64,000 nucleotides of DNA from the sequence record OZ335961.1. One strand, given 5' to 3'. Shown here piece by piece: positions 3,738-39,735 of the stretch. The translations under genes were made by a program, and so were the position numbers. Under the pieces are notes generated by a model. The model had not been told where the DNA came from. It was given only the letters and a program-made list of their open reading frames with translations, and ran no database searches. The DNA comes from a phage. The stretch's first letter is position 1. Every line of letters begins with the position of its first letter.

Positions 3738-4046
3738 TTATTTACCAATAAATTGGAGCAAATGCTCAACTTTCATACCATTAACGGAAATCAATTTATC
3801 AATAGAAAAACCTCGCCATGCACCAAGCTCAACATCAAATACTGGAACCATATCAGTAGATTCTTTCCGAGTAGATTCAGTCAATTTACCGGTTTGCATG
3901 GTTGGCATAAAGTCAGCATCACGAGTACCTTTCATAGTACGAATAGTACCATCAGACTTTTCAAAAACTACGTTTGAAATACCCATGGACAATTTAGTTT
4001 TTAAAATTTCACGAATTGCTACTTTCTGTTCAATTGTCAGTTTCAT
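3738..4046 (-). CDS. hypothetical protein (102 aa)
   Basis: ORF track; between cd and 31. Confidence 0.5.
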   Translation of the reverse strand: MKLTIEQKVAIREILKTKLSMGISNVVFEKSDGTIRTMKGTRDADFMPTMQTGKLTESTRKESTDMVPVFDVELGAWRGFSIDKLISVNGMKVEHLLQFIGK

Positions 4047-4283
4047 TTATTTACCTATTACAGTTTTAATATGAGTTGTTCCACGTTCTTTAAGAGTGGA
4101 AAGCAACTTTTGGCATTTTTCTAAATCAGATTTCCAACTATACGGTCTATCAATACAAACCCATTCTGACTTATAATACTGCTTCCATTTAGAGAAAAAA
4201 TATTTCTTATACTCTACAGCAAATGAAATGTTCTCGTTAGAATAAGAACTAATTGCTGTGAGCTGTACCAAACGAAATTTCAT
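4047..4283 (-). CDS. hypothetical protein (78 aa)
   Basis: ORF track; abuts the cd stop. Confidence 0.45.
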   Translation of the reverse strand: MKFRLVQLTAISSYSNENISFAVEYKKYFFSKWKQYYKSEWVCIDRPYSWKSDLEKCQKLLSTLKERGTTHIKTVIGK

Positions 4284-35349: not shown

Positions 35350-35357
35350 TAAAATTA

Positions 35358-35504
35358 CTGCATGACTGTGATAACTGTCATGATAACACGTTGAATTCCG
35401 AACGCAAGAAGACCTCCTGCTACGGCAGGAACAACACCTAAACCCGCCAGTAAAATGCTACCAGATACTAATGCAGCGCTTGTAATACCAATGAATGGAC
35501 TCAT
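35358..35504 (-). CDS. small hydrophobic protein (~48 aa)
   Basis: Hand-translated MSPFIGITSAALVSGSILLAGLGVVPAVAGGLLAFGIQRVIMTVITVMQ; start overlaps gene 52 stop (ATGA); hairpin terminator downstream. Confidence 0.4.
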
Positions 35505-36829
35505 TTGATTTCCTCTAAATCTTTAGTGTATTCTGTAACTACATCAGTAGTTTTCCAATATTCGTTTTCTTCTTTTTTGGCTTTAGCTTCTTCAGCAAGT
35601 TTTTTTGCTTCGTCAGAAGTCATATGAAAAATATTCATTCCAACTAGTTTATCAACATAAGAAGAATACATATCAATTTTAGAAAGTTCTTCTGTCAGTT
35701 CTTTGCGAGTTTTACCTTGTACAACAATTTCACCTGAAATTACTTTCTTAATGAAATGCGCCTTGGCAAAGGCTAAACGAAATGCTGATTCAGTTTCTTT
35801 TATTTTGTTATCAATTCGTTTTTGGACATAAGTTTTACGAACTTCAACGAAGTCTTTGATTAAATCAACTACGTTATCGTAAACTTGTAGCTTTCCTTTC
35901 TCATTAATAACGGTGATATTCTGGGAACGACGCTCAATCAACCCGAAGTCTTTCATAATTTTCGCGTGCCGTTCTTCTTCGTTATCACTCAAAGAGTATT
36001 CTTTACGGAATTTAACTTTGAATCCAAAACCATGCTCACCACAAGCATCATCCCACGTAATGAAGCCTTTATCTTCAAGCGGGTCTAAAATTTTGCTCAC
36101 GTAAGTTTCACGATCATACTTATATGGAATCTCAGTGATATTCATTTGAGTTCGTGAAGTAAACTTGTACGTTCCACGAATTTCATATTGACCATCAATT
36201 TCAACGACTTCACCACGAAATTCTGGGAATTCTACCTTCGGTTTAGTTACTTTCTTTCCTTGAAGAGCTTGCAATACAGCTTTCTTGACAGAAGAAACAC
36301 TATGAGGAAGAATGTAAGTTGCATAACCAGTTGCAATACCGGAAACACCATTAAGAAGAACAGTAGGAATAATAGGCAAATAGAAAGCAGGCGGAATGTG
36401 TTCTTTATCTTGATGTACCGGAGCATATTCAGTATCTTTATATACGTTATAGAAATTTTTACTTACACGAGCAAAAATATAACGACTTGCCGCTGCTTTT
36501 TGAACGGTACGAGAACCAAAGTTTCCTTGACCATCTAACAAAGGAAAGTTATTATTCCAAGTGTTAGCCATCAAAGCGCCCGCGTCTTGTGCAGAGTTTT
36601 CACCATGATGATATCCAAGGTCCGCTACACCACCTGCAATAGAAGCGAGTTTGTGAAACTTATCTTTATTTCCTCGTGCCAAATCAAGAGCTCGAGCAAT
36701 AACAAATCGTTGAACTGGCTTAAATCCATCAATCATATTTGGGATAGCACGATTTTCAACCGTGTACATAGCATAAGCCAATGCTTCATTATCAATGATA
36801 CTTTTTAAATCGCGATTATTCAGTTGCAT
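35501..36829 (-). CDS. 52: DNA topoisomerase II medium subunit gp52
   Basis: 442 aa as T4 gp52; GyrA-like N-terminal domain with active-site Tyr region. Confidence 0.9.
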   Translation of the reverse strand: MQLNNRDLKSIIDNEALAYAMYTVENRAIPNMIDGFKPVQRFVIARALDLARGNKDKFHKLASIAGGVADLGYHHGENSAQDAGALMANTWNNNFPLLDGQGNFGSRTVQKAAASRYIFARVSKNFYNVYKDTEYAPVHQDKEHIPPAFYLPIIPTVLLNGVSGIATGYATYILPHSVSSVKKAVLQALQGKKVTKPKVEFPEFRGEVVEIDGQYEIRGTYKFTSRTQMNITEIPYKYDRETYVSKILDPLEDKGFITWDDACGEHGFGFKVKFRKEYSLSDNEEERHAKIMKDFGLIERRSQNITVINEKGKLQVYDNVVDLIKDFVEVRKTYVQKRIDNKIKETESAFRLAFAKAHFIKKVISGEIVVQGKTRKELTEELSKIDMYSSYVDKLVGMNIFHMTSDEAKKLAEEAKAKKEENEYWKTTDVVTEYTKDLEEIK

Positions 36830-36833
36830 AAAT

Positions 36834-36974
36834 TTACCATACTAGTGAATGTAGTGCCATAATAACATCAGAAATGAAAAGCACGACTTGAATTAATCCG
36901 AACATTACTCCATAATATAGTGCTACCAATAAAGTAGCAAGGGCTAATGAATAGCCCAAGATTTTCTTAATCAT
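36834..36974 (-). CDS. small hydrophobic peptide (~46 aa)
   Basis: Hand-translated MIKKILGYSLALATLLVALYYGVMFGLIQVVLFISDVIMALHSLVW; below ORF-track size cutoff. Confidence 0.3.
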   Translation of the reverse strand: MIKKILGYSLALATLLVALYYGVMFGLIQVVLFISDVIMALHSLVW

Positions 36975-37125
36975 TAGTAGATAACAACACAAATGTTAAA
37001 TATGCACACATACCCTGGGCTAAAGCTTGTGAAAACACACTGCTAGCATCGATACAGATAGTTAAAACACATGCTACTATCCAACAAATAAATGAAATAA
37101 CTCCTAATAATTTTGCAATATTCAT
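36967..37125 (-). CDS. small hydrophobic peptide (~52 aa)
   Basis: Hand-translated MNIAKLLGVISFICWIVACVLTICIDASSVFSQALAQGMCAYLTFVLLSTND; SD GAGGAAAA before ATG. Confidence 0.3.
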   Translation of the reverse strand: MNIAKLLGVISFICWIVACVLTICIDASSVFSQALAQGMCAYLTFVLLSTND

Positions 37126-37212
37126 ATTTTCCTCACTGGCGTCCGAAGACGCCTTTGGTTTTAAGATTGTTACGATAGAACTGCATCACATGTTCGTTAT
37201 GGAAATTACTCA

Positions 37213-37668
37213 TTAATATGCCTGCAAAACAAATTTAAAGTTATCAGCCAACATACGGTTCATTTCTTCAAGCGTTTGATACTCAGAATGATGATTACGA
37301 GTAAACGCCAAAGCTAACTGACCTTTTCCAAATCCCGTCGTCAGAGGTTTCATCTTAGAAGCAGGCAAATAAAATACTGTGTATGGAACATTGTTATTTG
37401 CAATAGTACGCGCAAGCTGAGACCGACGTTGACGAATATGACTTAGAACTGCACTGAACCCTTGCTTAGAACGCTGATTACCTACATAAAATCGCGCAGA
37501 TACACATGGACTATCAAATGGACCACCAAATTTGCTCACTAAAAAGTAAAATCCAGGTTTAGACAAAATGTCTTTATGCGGAGTTCCAAAAACCCATTCA
37601 CCGCCCTTGATTGTACCAATAACGGTTGCGCCTGCATTATTCAGATCAGTAACAGTCATGTATTTCAT
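37213..37668 (-). CDS. ndd: nucleoid disruption protein Ndd
   Basis: ~151 aa from [18 protein letters not shown]...; matches recalled T4 Ndd; ORF track over-extends the N-terminus. Confidence 0.7.
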
Positions 37669-37728
37669 ATTAATTTCCTCTAAATTATTTTCTACTCCAA
37701 GGCCGCATGAATACACACGGCCAATAAA

Positions 37729-37944
37729 TTAATCGTCACAGTCGACGCTCAATTCCCAGAACTCTTCTACGGTATAAGTTTCAGTATCATTTTCAATACA
37801 GAAACGCTCATTACTGTTGTTTTCTAAAGTAGCGTTAACTGTCATTTTCTCGCTAGTGCTCTTAAGAGGTGAAATACGAATTAACTGATCACCATTATCT
37901 AAACAAAAAATTTCACCAACTTTTACATCTTTAAAAATTTTCAT
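37729..37944 (-). CDS. hypothetical protein (71 aa)
   Basis: ORF track. Confidence 0.45.
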   Translation of the reverse strand: MKIFKDVKVGEIFCLDNGDQLIRISPLKSTSEKMTVNATLENNSNERFCIENDTETYTVEEFWELSVDCDD

Positions 37945-38059
37945 AATTCACCTCAAGGAGTATAAAATCCGAATGCAGTTGTTGACCATCCCATCCAATA
38001 CGGAAAATTTGCACCAATGTAAAACATGAGAATATAAAACCAACCGCTCAGCAAATTCA

Positions 38060-38278
38060 TCATTTTACACCATTCCAAATTGTTTCAACTACAGATTTTA
38101 AGCCATTTTGGTGAATATCCATTCCGACAACTGCCATCAAATAAATTCCAACTACAACTGAACCTAAGGCGAAAATCAGCATGAAAATGAATAAAGCCGG
38201 AAAAATATTATCGAAAAACCATTCAACAAATGTAAAAGCACTGCGTTTACGCTTCATATTTTCCTCACATAAATCCAA
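38060..38278 (-). CDS. small membrane protein (72 aa)
   Basis: ORF track; central hydrophobic stretch FPALFIFMLIFALGSVVVGIYLMAVV. Confidence 0.45.
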   Translation of the reverse strand: MDLCEENMKRKRSAFTFVEWFFDNIFPALFIFMLIFALGSVVVGIYLMAVVGMDIHQNGLKSVVETIWNGVK

Positions 38279-38378
38279 AGTAAGCGTTTAATACATCAAT
38301 CATTAAAACGATTGGGAATATACTCAAAACTACTAGTATTATAACTACATTCCATATAGCTTTAACAATCTTTTTCAT
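38265..38378 (-). CDS. small membrane peptide (~37 aa)
   Basis: ORF track trimmed to MKKIVKAIWNVVIILVVLSIF... with GGAGG SD; an early promoter element lies inside the longer track ORF. Confidence 0.4.
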   Translation of the reverse strand: MKKIVKAIWNVVIILVVLSIFPIVLMIDVLNAYFGFM

Positions 38379-38406
38379 TTTCTGTTCCTCCGTAGTTGAT
38401 AGGGTA

Positions 38407-38436
38407 ATAATACCACAGAGGAACAGTCTTGTAAAC
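38407..38436 (-). promoter_or_regulatory. T4-type early promoter
   Basis: GTTTAC -35, TATTAT -10; precedes small membrane ORF 38265..38378. Confidence 0.45.
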
Positions 38437-38621
38437 AACTTTTTTAAAAATATTCGTAATAAATGTGAATACCAACTACTACCGCTGAAACTTGCGCAAC
38501 CCACCACGCACAAGCAATAAGCACAGAATTCAAAATTTTCATAATAACCTCATCACAAAAGTAAATACTAAACAAATCAATGGAATACTAATTAACCAAA
38601 CAAAACACCACCATAATGAAC

Positions 38622-38894
38622 TCATAGTTCAATCTCAGCGATTTTCATTTCATTACTATTAATAGCCGCTTTAAGACTATCTGAAAGAATTACATCCCAG
38701 TGGTCATTCATATGACCATTAACTAAGCGTGTAATTTCTTCGGGAGTTGAAAAATAAGGCGTATCAGACTCCCAGTGTGATAATCCCAAACGAGTATAAA
38801 TCATGCCTTCATCATCGCTAGAATATTCAACTGACACAAACTCATCAGTTATTTTATGTTTAGCGTAATAAAATTTAAATTTCATTTTACTCAA
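38622..38894 (-). CDS. hypothetical protein (90 aa)
   Basis: ORF track. Confidence 0.45.
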   Translation of the reverse strand: MSKMKFKFYYAKHKITDEFVSVEYSSDDEGMIYTRLGLSHWESDTPYFSTPEEITRLVNGHMNDHWDVILSDSLKAAINSNEMKIAEIEL

Positions 38895-39097
38895 TAATCC
38901 GCTAAAAGATCGACGATTGTATCACGAAGACATTTATTCGCAATACGTTTAAGAGCAATTTCAGTTTCTGGAGCATTTTGAATAATCATCGAATTCAATT
39001 CAGCCTCAGCAAACTGAAGTTCTTTAACTAATTCAGCTTTATATTTTCCTTGCCCTTTCTTAGCTTTTGCTCGTTTTAATTCAGCCGTAGTAAACAT
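38891..39097 (-). CDS. hypothetical protein (~68 aa)
   Basis: ORF track trimmed to internal ATG with GGAGAA SD; early promoter at ~39132-39161 lies inside the longer track ORF. Confidence 0.45.
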   Translation of the reverse strand: MFTTAELKRAKAKKGQGKYKAELVKELQFAEAELNSMIIQNAPETEIALKRIANKCLRDTIVDLLADY

Positions 39098-39131
39098 TTT
39101 ATTCTCCAAATCCGTATCAGTTGATAGTTGT

Positions 39132-39161
39132 ATAGTACCACAGTCCTTGTGGTATGTAAAC
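39132..39161 (-). promoter_or_regulatory. T4-type early promoter
   Basis: Near-identical copy of the motA promoter element; precedes ORF 38891..39097. Confidence 0.5.
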
Positions 39162-39177
39162 CGTTTTGTGAAAATTT

Positions 39178-39735
39178 TTAAATGGAAAGATACCATCCGT
39201 TGTAGTTGCTTTTTCTTACAACCTTACGAAGGTCTTCTCTATCACCGATGAACTTCGGAGTGTACTGGATGACACCTGGATGAATTTCTTTAGTGTTGAA
39301 TATAATTATACAGTCAGCGACCTGATGATTCAGAATGGGCCCTAGATTTATTCCAGAACCATATGGATACTCTCCGCTGCATCCTGTTGTTACAGAAATC
39401 CAACGTGAGTCAGTTTGATGTGTCTTAACTTCTACACGAATCCCGCAGTATCTTGGATGCGCCAATACATCCCATGCGTATGTATACGGGTCATTAACAT
39501 CCTCTTGGCCTTTGTTAACATACCCGCTTAGCCAATCTGCTACAAAAAACTCTGCGTACACCGCGATACGACATCTTTCGATAACTTCTGCTTTATCCTG
39601 GTTCGGGTTTTGTTTTAAAGAGTATCTTGTTGTATCAGCAATTTTGACCTTCATTTCACTAGTCAAGTCACTGTTCGATAGGGTAAATGTCGGAATCTGA
39701 AATAGTCTCTGTAAACCCGGATTCGTTTTCTGCAT
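39178..39735 (-). CDS. denB: probable endonuclease IV
   Basis: 185 aa, size and position of T4 DenB between ndd and rIIB. Confidence 0.6.
   Translation of the reverse strand: MQKTNPGLQRLFQIPTFTLSNSDLTSEMKVKIADTTRYSLKQNPNQDKAEVIERCRIAVYAEFFVADWLSGYVNKGQEDVNDPYTYAWDVLAHPRYCGIRVEVKTHQTDSRWISVTTGCSGEYPYGSGINLGPILNHQVADCIIIFNTKEIHPGVIQYTPKFIGDREDLRKVVRKSNYNGWYLSI

Follow-up and report, generated by a model that had tools for sequence, protein, structure and literature searches.

A known T-even block of small membrane-protein genes between gene 52 and denB in a T4-like phage genome

The 64,000 nucleotides of phage DNA analysed here (sequence record OZ335961.1; hereafter "the window", meaning this whole stretch) belong to a Tequatrovirus (T4-like) genome. 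The analysis concerns the interval between the topoisomerase gene 52 and denB and, in particular, the very short open reading frames (ORFs) for hydrophobic products which an earlier note, made from the sequence alone, had pointed out at positions 36830 to 38620. Positions 36700-39300 were found to be 97.7% identical to phage ime09 over 2.6 kb, and positions 36830-38630 99.0% identical to Shigella phage sb2 over 1.8 kb. Altogether 586 phage records match the region, most of them from T-even phages of Escherichia, Shigella and Yersinia. Both in its identity and in its coding status the interval almost certainly represents the T-even accessory block 52.1-ac-stp-ndd-ndd.1-ndd.2-ndd.2a-ndd.4-ndd.5-ndd.6, which sits in a hyperplastic region between gene 52 and denB. 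Every gene of the interval is located on the minus strand, and Table 1 lists them in the order from gene 52 towards denB.

Table 1. Features of the block in the window, with family matches and the number of loci (out of 45) in which each family was detected. aa, amino acids.
Feature	Position	Strand	Product or basis	Family match	Loci (of 45)
52.1	36834..36974	-	46 aa; 97% identical to T4 gp52.1	DUF7396, phrog_3595	40
ac	36967..37125	-	52 aa; 96% identical to T4 Ac	phrog_2501 (E=3.7e-25)	18 (paralogous type counted in)
stp	37133..37213	-	26 aa; 100% identical to T4 Stp	PF08133	22
ndd	37213..37668	-	151 aa; soluble nucleoid disruption protein; 96% identical to T4 Ndd		
ndd.1	37729..37944	-	71 aa; acidic, soluble	phrog_2183 (E=1e-37)	
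ndd.2	37953..38063	-	36 aa; 97% identical to T4 Ndd.2	phrog_4135 (E=1.7e-24)	23 (other genera included)
ndd.2a, full-length form	38060..38257	-	65 aa	DUF7248, phrog_2401	27
ndd.4	38265..38378	-	37 aa	phrog_3098 (E=3e-21)	40
PeSL-type promoter and stem-loop cassette	38382..38435	-	promoter scan, folding		
ndd.5	38444..38542	-	32 aa; 100% identical to T4 Ndd.5	phrog_5011 (E=3.6e-26)	14 (Tequatrovirus only)
ndd.6	38539..38625	-	28 aa; 92% identical to T4 Ndd.6	phrog_8851 (E=4.8e-16)	22 (other genera included)
denB	39178..39735		beyond two soluble ORFs that follow ndd.6		

The gene names derive from a direct comparison of the interval with the reference annotation of T4 and with curated related phages. 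This comparison with ac, stp and the ndd.x ORFs of T4, which had been suggested in the earlier note, settled the identity of each small gene at 91-100% amino acid identity. The proposed link to acridine resistance proved well founded since one of the ORFs is the T4 gene ac itself. A PHROG family could be assigned to every gene of the block, and the profile matches of Ndd.2, Ndd.4, Ndd.5 and Ndd.6 are all full length. The DUF7396 match of 52.1 (81.9 bits, cutoff 27) covers residues 1-46 of 46 and is accompanied by an E-value of 1.2e-25 for phrog_3595. DUF7248 was matched by Ndd.2a with 71.8 bits (cutoff 27) and the anticodon-nuclease activator family PF08133 by Stp with 75.3 bits (cutoff 25). 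For Ac, PF26944 is indicated by precomputed hits on close homologues, and PF26889 can be assigned to Ndd.4 via a natural Ndd.4-Ndd.2a fusion protein (P0017, gp120 of Shigella phage Sf25). The small hydrophobic ORFs are therefore not overlooked genes, but the long-annotated T4 genes 52.1, ac, ndd.2, ndd.2a, ndd.4, ndd.5 and ndd.6 (NC_000866) with their PHROG and Pfam families. Since every ORF corresponds to an annotated T4 gene with a PHROG family, their recognition has little discovery value. Several GenBank records of related phages omit 52.1, stp and ndd.6, and the reading by hand thus recovered true genes which automated annotation has often missed in related phages.

The T4 counterpart (NC_000866, 165209-166996) agrees with the window in gene order, strand, spacing, and PHROG and Pfam families. 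However, Ac of the window is longer by one Thr, and T4 lacks the two soluble ORFs found in the window between ndd.6 and denB. Moreover, T4 ndd.4 has an in-frame ATG upstream where the window has ACG, so that the start in the window is the conserved MKK. A further difference concerns ndd.2a, which carries a 1-nt deletion just after its start codon in the T4 reference (NC_000866, locus positions 3933-4129). The gene is thereby split in T4 and annotated as "ndd.3" and "ndd.2a", whereas the window has the intact ORF, as do most relatives. The T4 "ndd.3" (26 amino acids), listed as a PHROG singleton in the CRISPRi-ART table (PMC11879866), is the out-of-frame N-terminal part, and the T4 "ndd.2a" (40 amino acids) is a restart at an internal Met. 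In clusters at 90% identity the 65-residue form is represented by 95 and 109 members and the T4-like short forms by 1. The record of phage T2 (PV648363.1, locus positions 305-700 and 1540-1740) has nonsense codons at codon 11 of ac and codon 45 of ndd.2a. Together with the T4 deletion these are occasional lesions of laboratory strains and as such exceptions.

Gp120 of Sf25, with a length of 62 amino acids, is an in-frame fusion of the N-terminal two-thirds of Ndd.4 and the C-terminal half of Ndd.2a with precomputed Pfam matches to PF26889 and PF23906. It presumably arose via a deletion between the adjacent genes.

The five ORFs which the earlier note had described as almost wholly hydrophobic lie on the minus strand at the positions given there, apart from ndd.5, which is displaced by one base. 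Their character was confirmed by hydropathy analysis. All hydrophobic peptides except Ndd.2 have a grand average of hydropathy (GRAVY) of 0.6-1.9 and a best 19-residue Kyte-Doolittle window of 2.2-3.05. Ndd.2 stays below the threshold of 2.0 (best window 1.17) but has zero charged residues and is 33% aromatic. A sixth small ORF, ndd.6, was missing from that list. Concerning the "two larger membrane ORFs" mentioned in it, Ndd.2a is indeed a hydrophobic membrane protein, whereas Ndd.1 is acidic and soluble with a GRAVY of -0.49. In total, seven of the block's genes encode proteins of 28-65 amino acids, each made up almost wholly of one or two predicted transmembrane helices.

To assess what chance would produce, ATG-initiated ORFs of 26-70 amino acids with a best 19-residue Kyte-Doolittle window of at least 2.0 were counted in the region 36830-38630. 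Six qualifying ORFs were found on the minus strand and none on the plus strand, compared with 0.44 +/- 0.66 (maximum 3) in 500 dinucleotide-preserving shuffles. Similar hydrophobic ORFs in the rest of the window lack a ribosome-binding site, with the exception of motA.1, and apart from the latter they look like out-of-frame noise.

Within the genus, the ratio of non-synonymous to synonymous polymorphism per site (pN/pS) was determined for 14 Tequatrovirus loci against the window. In frame it amounts to 0.04 for ac, 0.05 for stp, 0.10 for ndd.2a, 0.11 each for ndd and ndd.5, 0.14 for ndd.2, 0.21 for ndd.6 and 0.34 for 52.1. The alternative frames of ac, stp, ndd.2, ndd.2a, ndd.5 and ndd.6 gave ratios of at least 0.76; for 52.1, which has few substitutions, one alternative frame is similarly low (0.26). 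Iterative profile searches across all small ORFs of 45 loci, some of them from T-even genera so distant that the identity of Ndd falls to 46-66%, detected the families in the numbers of loci given in Table 1. Conserved motifs comprise ...VLFISDVI...SLIW in 52.1, KAIWN...FP...D in Ndd.4, G-x-N-x-P-Y-W-(L/M)-G in Ndd.2 and the C-terminal GLKSVVExIWNG in Ndd.2a, which is kept across genera. The ratio of non-synonymous to synonymous substitution rates (dN/dS) against other genera is 0.10-0.42 for 52.1, at most 0.15 for ndd.4, at most 0.33 for ndd.2a and about 0.6 for ndd.6; the between-genus values do not exceed 0.64, and in most pairs the synonymous sites have reached or almost reached saturation. 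The small ORFs are protein-coding genes under protein-level selection across T-even genera. The small membrane peptides are hence genuine conserved coding frames, and the conservation in related phages on which the earlier note had made its reading depend holds in the pN/pS values, in the presence of the families in 14-40 of 45 loci and in the between-genus dN/dS.

Gene 52.1 stands out with 86-93% amino acid identity in genera in which gp52 is 69-82% and Ndd 60-63% identical (loci L008-L014 and L033, excluding L012, of which residues 32-46 alone aligned). For L008 and L010, the only two loci to which these values apply, its nucleotide identity is 87% and its pS 0.36-0.38. The high identity reflects either an unusually strong constraint or the recent recombination of a short segment.

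Regarding membrane topology, AlphaFold2 places helices at residues 3-24 and 28-50 of Ac with a mean predicted local distance difference test score (pLDDT) of 78. Ac is accordingly modelled as a two-helix hairpin membrane protein, with which the ESMFold model of a preprint on Ac agrees (bioRxiv 10.1101/2025.06.30.662393). For Ndd.2a a single continuous helix from residue 4 to 64 was predicted (mean pLDDT 83.5). The protein has a KRKR N-terminus, an apolar run of 29 residues and a conserved amphipathic C-terminal segment, and by the positive-inside rule its topology is presumably N-in/C-out. Ndd.4, with its KK..K N-terminus and conserved F-P and D, and Ndd.5 both appear to combine a basic N-terminus with one transmembrane segment. 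Ndd.6, which has a single C-terminal Arg and two conserved Cys (WC...IC), is presumably a single-pass peptide, and 52.1 could form either a hairpin around its conserved YYG or one long helix.

The "outer membrane" and "periplasmic" labels of Ndd.2, Ndd.2a, Ndd.5 and Ndd.6 in T4 are legacy predictions. Inspection by eye revealed no convincing signal peptide or lipobox in these four peptides; the lipobox-like LIAC at residues 8-11 of Ndd.5 is preceded by a segment of just 10 residues, and the other three look like plain transmembrane helices. Insertion into the inner membrane is more plausible.

The block is compact: apart from three intergenic spacers of 60-80 nt, the distance between neighbouring genes ranges from -8 to +8 nt. 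Strong Shine-Dalgarno (SD) sites precede ac, ndd.2a, ndd.4 and ndd.5, with duplex energies against the anti-SD sequence of -6.2 to -9.5 kcal/mol, which rank among the top 0.2-3.5% of positions. The site of ndd.4 is the strongest of the region (-9.5 kcal/mol), and those of ac and ndd.5 read GAGG. The claim that each of the short ORFs has an SD-like sequence is thus justified for ac, ndd.4 and ndd.5, but not for 52.1, which lacks such a site (+0.9 kcal/mol); that of ndd.6 is weak. The starts of 52.1, ndd.6 and stp, all three with weak SD sites or none, lie in the stop codon region of the gene before them, with which they share 8 nt (52.1 and ac), 4 nt (ndd.6) and 1 nt (stp and ndd); this implies translational coupling. 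ATGA overlaps connect ndd.2 with the stop of ndd.2a, ndd.5 with ndd.6, and ndd.6 with the upstream ORF. The gap between 52.1 and gene 52 is 4 nt, and the same arrangement occurs in T4 and the related loci inspected.

The 65-nt spacer before ndd.4 contains an early-type promoter (TTTACA-17-TATTAT with TG extension, 38435..38407, 10/12 matches) nested inside a stem-loop, whose 15-bp stem (38426..38382) has a folding energy of -23.2 kcal/mol (z = -4.2; none of 200 shuffles as stable). The stem is retained in 14/14 Tequatrovirus loci via G-C/G-U changes, and its 3' arm holds the SD site of ndd.4 (GGAGG). The element resembles the promoter-early stem-loop (PeSL) cassettes of T4-type phages (Arbiol et al. 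2010, PMC2839356; Comeau et al. 2014, PMC4122927) in its consensus early promoter, its stable stem-loop, and its location in the hyperplastic region at the ndd.4/ndd.5 junction. The PeSL consensus of T4/PST is TTTACW-N17-TAYWAT, the region is known for PeSL-mediated gene shuffling, and the ndd.4/ndd.5 junction has been given as an example of cassette exchange (PMC4122927). What may differ from the described cassettes is the sequestration of the SD site by the 3' arm, which we infer here from the folded sequence. A transcript from the local promoter would lack the 5' arm, so that the ribosome-binding site is presumably masked only on read-through RNA. Since ndd.4 possesses an early promoter of its own within this stem-loop, its translation should take place chiefly on the short RNA that starts there.

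Two further hairpins were observed on the minus strand. One (37138-37153; GGCGUC-UUCG-GACGCC, -12.2 kcal/mol, z = -2.8) is a tetraloop hairpin that the final codons of stp encode and that immediately precedes the SD site of ac. In T2, vB_EcoM_F1 and BCPEco_001 the C-terminus of Stp reads ...NNLKNFGILGFKK or ...GSKNS instead of ...KTKGVFGRQ, and judging from these protein sequences the hairpin is probably absent from phages with the alternative C-terminus. The other is a 9-bp G+C-rich hairpin (GGCCGUGUG...CAUGCGGCC; 37690-37722) in the spacer of 60 nt that separates ndd.1 from ndd; the folding energy of the 76-nt segment is -16.8 kcal/mol (z = -2.65). It is not followed by a T-run and may serve in the stability or processing of the RNA.

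Ac is the only one of the small membrane proteins of the block with a known phenotype. The wild-type allele renders the infection acridine-sensitive, plasmid-expressed Ac sensitised E. coli to acriflavine about 1000-fold, and a G38R substitution in Ac conferred resistance with loss of the phage phenotype (bioRxiv 10.1101/2025.06.30.662393). Ac of the window retains G38, which is invariant in the Ac alignment, and represents the common variant with an extra Thr (...LLSTND). The Ac variant of PP01, which has the same extra Thr, keeps the phenotype (bioRxiv 10.1101/2025.06.30.662393).

An exhaustive HMMER search with Ac retrieved only three genuine clusters at 50% identity; what it added was a single cluster with 53% identity, besides two long proteins that were spurious matches. 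Ac thus appears to be confined to T-even phages, as this search reached few clusters, all of them T-even. The k-mer-indexed homologue searches with Ac and Ndd.2a recovered near-identical Tequatrovirus proteins only.

Other small membrane proteins occupy neighbouring positions in related phages. A paralogue of Ac (MKFVHGIAFFCWFF...ETSVFLQASAQG...) is encoded beside ac in Bas41 (locus L045, 607-762) and vB_SsoM_113 and apparently replaces ac in RB68. A two-helix family of 57 amino acids (...FERLCKMCGVY) is located between ndd and stp in ime09 (locus L001, 1007-1180) and directly after ndd in other genera, where a third small two-helix membrane family with a GVWVPS motif was also found.

Taken as a whole, the interval is very probably best explained as a known T-even block of small membrane-protein genes. 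Transcription of this compact array runs leftward, and translation starts at strong SD sites or is coupled through overlapping stop and start codons. In the first minutes of infection the peptides would insert into the inner membrane of the host, where each might act by helix-helix contacts with a component of the host envelope. The benefit would be conditional and invisible on laboratory hosts. Ac would raise the intracellular acridine concentration, for which inhibition of AcrAB-TolC efflux has been proposed as the route (bioRxiv 10.1101/2025.06.30.662393; repeated in PMC13250531). That the uncharacterised members are likewise small transmembrane modulators of host envelope proteins is a tentative suggestion to which we give slightly less than even chances. 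A more specific version is rather unlikely. It regards the block as a toolkit in which each peptide disables a different inner-membrane machine of the host: AcrAB-TolC in the case of Ac, and lipid synthesis, transporters or membrane-embedded abortive-infection effectors in the case of the others, with 52.1 possibly partnering the adjacent topoisomerase at the membrane. If true, phages would possess in such a toolkit their own equivalent of the small regulatory proteins known from bacteria, of which AcrZ is an example.

AcrZ is a bacterial small inner-membrane regulator of 49 amino acids that binds AcrB. The phage peptides are similar to it in size, in possessing one or two transmembrane helices and in the absence of any other domain, and by analogy the pump AcrAB-TolC may be a target common to AcrZ and Ac. 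However, sequence similarity to AcrZ is undetectable, and the phage peptides are restricted to T4-like phages. Pairwise comparison also revealed no paralogy among the seven peptides themselves (no z above 3). The T4 proteins Imm, Sp, RI, RIII and holin T are likewise phage-encoded, insert into the envelope and are sometimes dispensable, but they are larger (about 80-220 amino acids), with established functions in the exclusion of superinfection or the timing of lysis. No sequence relationship to these five proteins appeared in the general PHROG/Pfam family scans.

Several observations weigh against this interpretation of the block. The efflux-pump mechanism of Ac is a proposal made in a preprint, and in a Smith-Waterman comparison with a provisional AcrZ sequence Ac did not score above shuffles (p = 0.46); of the seven peptides, 52.1 paired best with it (p = 0.017, uncorrected for 7 tests). 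Within Tequatrovirus, pN of ndd.4 (0.020) exceeds pS (0.006). The excess consists of three conservative, apparently recombining polymorphisms (I/V, V/I, A/V) at almost no synonymous change, and diversifying selection is not called because the counts are too small. The genes ndd through ndd.6 were scored "Not Fit" by CRISPRi-ART, in which knock-down of the ndd.x genes left fitness unchanged (PMC11879866 supplement), and the HIDEN-SEQ transposon screens scored ndd and ndd.1-ndd.6 as "Non-essential", with an adjusted p of 1.0 for ndd.1-ndd.6 in one conditional resampling comparison. The whole block is missing from viable T4 deletions of the GT7 type (PMC9712115) and is also absent from the viable deletion sa-delta-9 (PMC6071114). 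Finally, the small hydrophobic products, including those of 52.1 and ndd.2-ndd.6, were not detected in T4 shotgun proteomics, in which Ndd and Ndd.1 were found, the latter early (PMC9697503 Table S2). The proteomic non-detection is expected because tryptic digestion of each hydrophobic product leaves a single peptide, 26-49 residues long and very hydrophobic. A ribosome-profiling study of T4 did not turn up in the literature searched. In favour of the interpretation, RNA-seq classified the transcripts of all block genes as "early" (PMC9697503 Table S2). The block contains tiny genes that are under clear protein-level selection and among whose small membrane products only Ac has an assigned function, which makes them reasonable targets for small-protein methods (Ribo-seq, tagged expression, partner screens).

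The earlier note had considered membrane or defence-modulating functions, and the peptides might indeed be dedicated anti-defence factors acting on membrane-bound immune effectors of the host. They are encoded by early genes in a variable hyperplastic region beside stp, a known modulator of EcoprrI/PrrC, and are dispensable on laboratory hosts. Moreover, gene turnover between phages, with Ac paralogues and other small transmembrane families in the same slots, is typical of arms-race genes. However, 52.1, ndd.4 and ac show strong conservation instead of diversification, and the text on the HIDEN-SEQ T4 screens (RexAB, RnlAB, CBASS, DarTG, clinical isolates) reports no hit in the block. The scan of the PADLOC-DB profiles with the peptides gave one sub-threshold match as the sole result, a transmembrane segment of Ndd.4 to KwaA (E=0.0085, 13.8 bits), and the PADLOC, NCBIfam and PDB sequence searches returned nothing meaningful. 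A defence-modulating role of 52.1 and ndd.2-ndd.6 thus found no backing in either the PADLOC matches or the screens. The restriction-related peptide of the region, Stp, is hydrophilic (GRAVY -1.03), contrary to the suggestion of a restriction-modulating membrane peptide. Altogether, we regard the anti-defence function as improbable.

Even less probable is the assumption that one or more of the peptides reprogramme the lipid synthesis or permeability of the host membrane in the sense of a general remodelling or of superinfection exclusion, instead of acting on particular proteins. The deletion sa-delta-9, which extends from 52.1 through denB, halved the burst size and abolished the stimulation of phosphatidylglycerol synthesis induced by T4 (Kutter et al., PMC6071114), and early work ascribed the effect of Ac to an altered permeability. 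However, the sa-delta-9 phenotype is not assignable to one gene because ndd, stp, ndd.1 and denB are also deleted. The profile searches revealed no enzyme-like domain in the peptides, and the authors of the Ac preprint favour the blockage of efflux over an increased uptake (bioRxiv 10.1101/2025.06.30.662393).

It seems very improbable that 52.1, and perhaps Ac, act as membrane partners of the adjoining T4 type II topoisomerase, which would connect the acridine phenotype with this enzyme. In favour of this view, only 4 nt separate 52.1 from the downstream gene 52 and the two genes adjoin in 40/45 loci, 52.1 is 89-93% identical where gp52 is 69-81% and Ndd 63% identical, and acridine-resistance mutations map to the topoisomerase genes 39 and 60 as well (secondary citation). 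However, deletions that remove or truncate 52.1 are viable, whereas topoisomerase mutants of T4 show a DNA-delay phenotype, and the identity of 52.1 may reflect the recent recombination considered above for the two loci with 87% nucleotide identity and a pS of 0.36-0.38.

The last alternative, that the ORFs are not genes but arose by chance because T-rich codons, common in A+T-rich DNA, encode hydrophobic residues, could appeal to their very short length, to about 16 further random hydrophobic ORFs per strand in the window without ribosome-binding sites and to the proteins never detected by proteomics, but it is effectively refuted by the six ORFs observed against a shuffle maximum of three, by the in-frame purifying selection and the cross-genus amino acid conservation at saturated synonymous sites, by the strong SD sites or stop/start overlaps, and by the genetic and expression evidence for ac.

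Next to the known T-even block, some neighbouring ORFs were recorded on the minus strand. The two soluble ORFs between ndd.6 and denB, both absent in T4, encode 87 amino acids (38622..38885, phrog_2390; overlapping the start of ndd.6 by 4 nt) and 68 amino acids (38891..39097). Both are present in ime09 and vB_SsoM_113, and the former also in RB68 and Bas41. An ORF of 37 amino acids with a TTG start (38362..38475) was rejected as a gene because it runs through the promoter and stem-loop of the spacer and into the genes on either side. Its annotation as a coding sequence in ime09 ("ndd.5") and RB68 (hypothetical protein) is probably an artefact. On the other side of gene 52, motA.1 (35355..35504) is a hydrophobic, Gly/Ala/Val-rich ORF of 49 amino acids with a good SD site. 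It shares 4 nt with the 3' end of gene 52, and small membrane-protein genes are thus located on both sides of gene 52.

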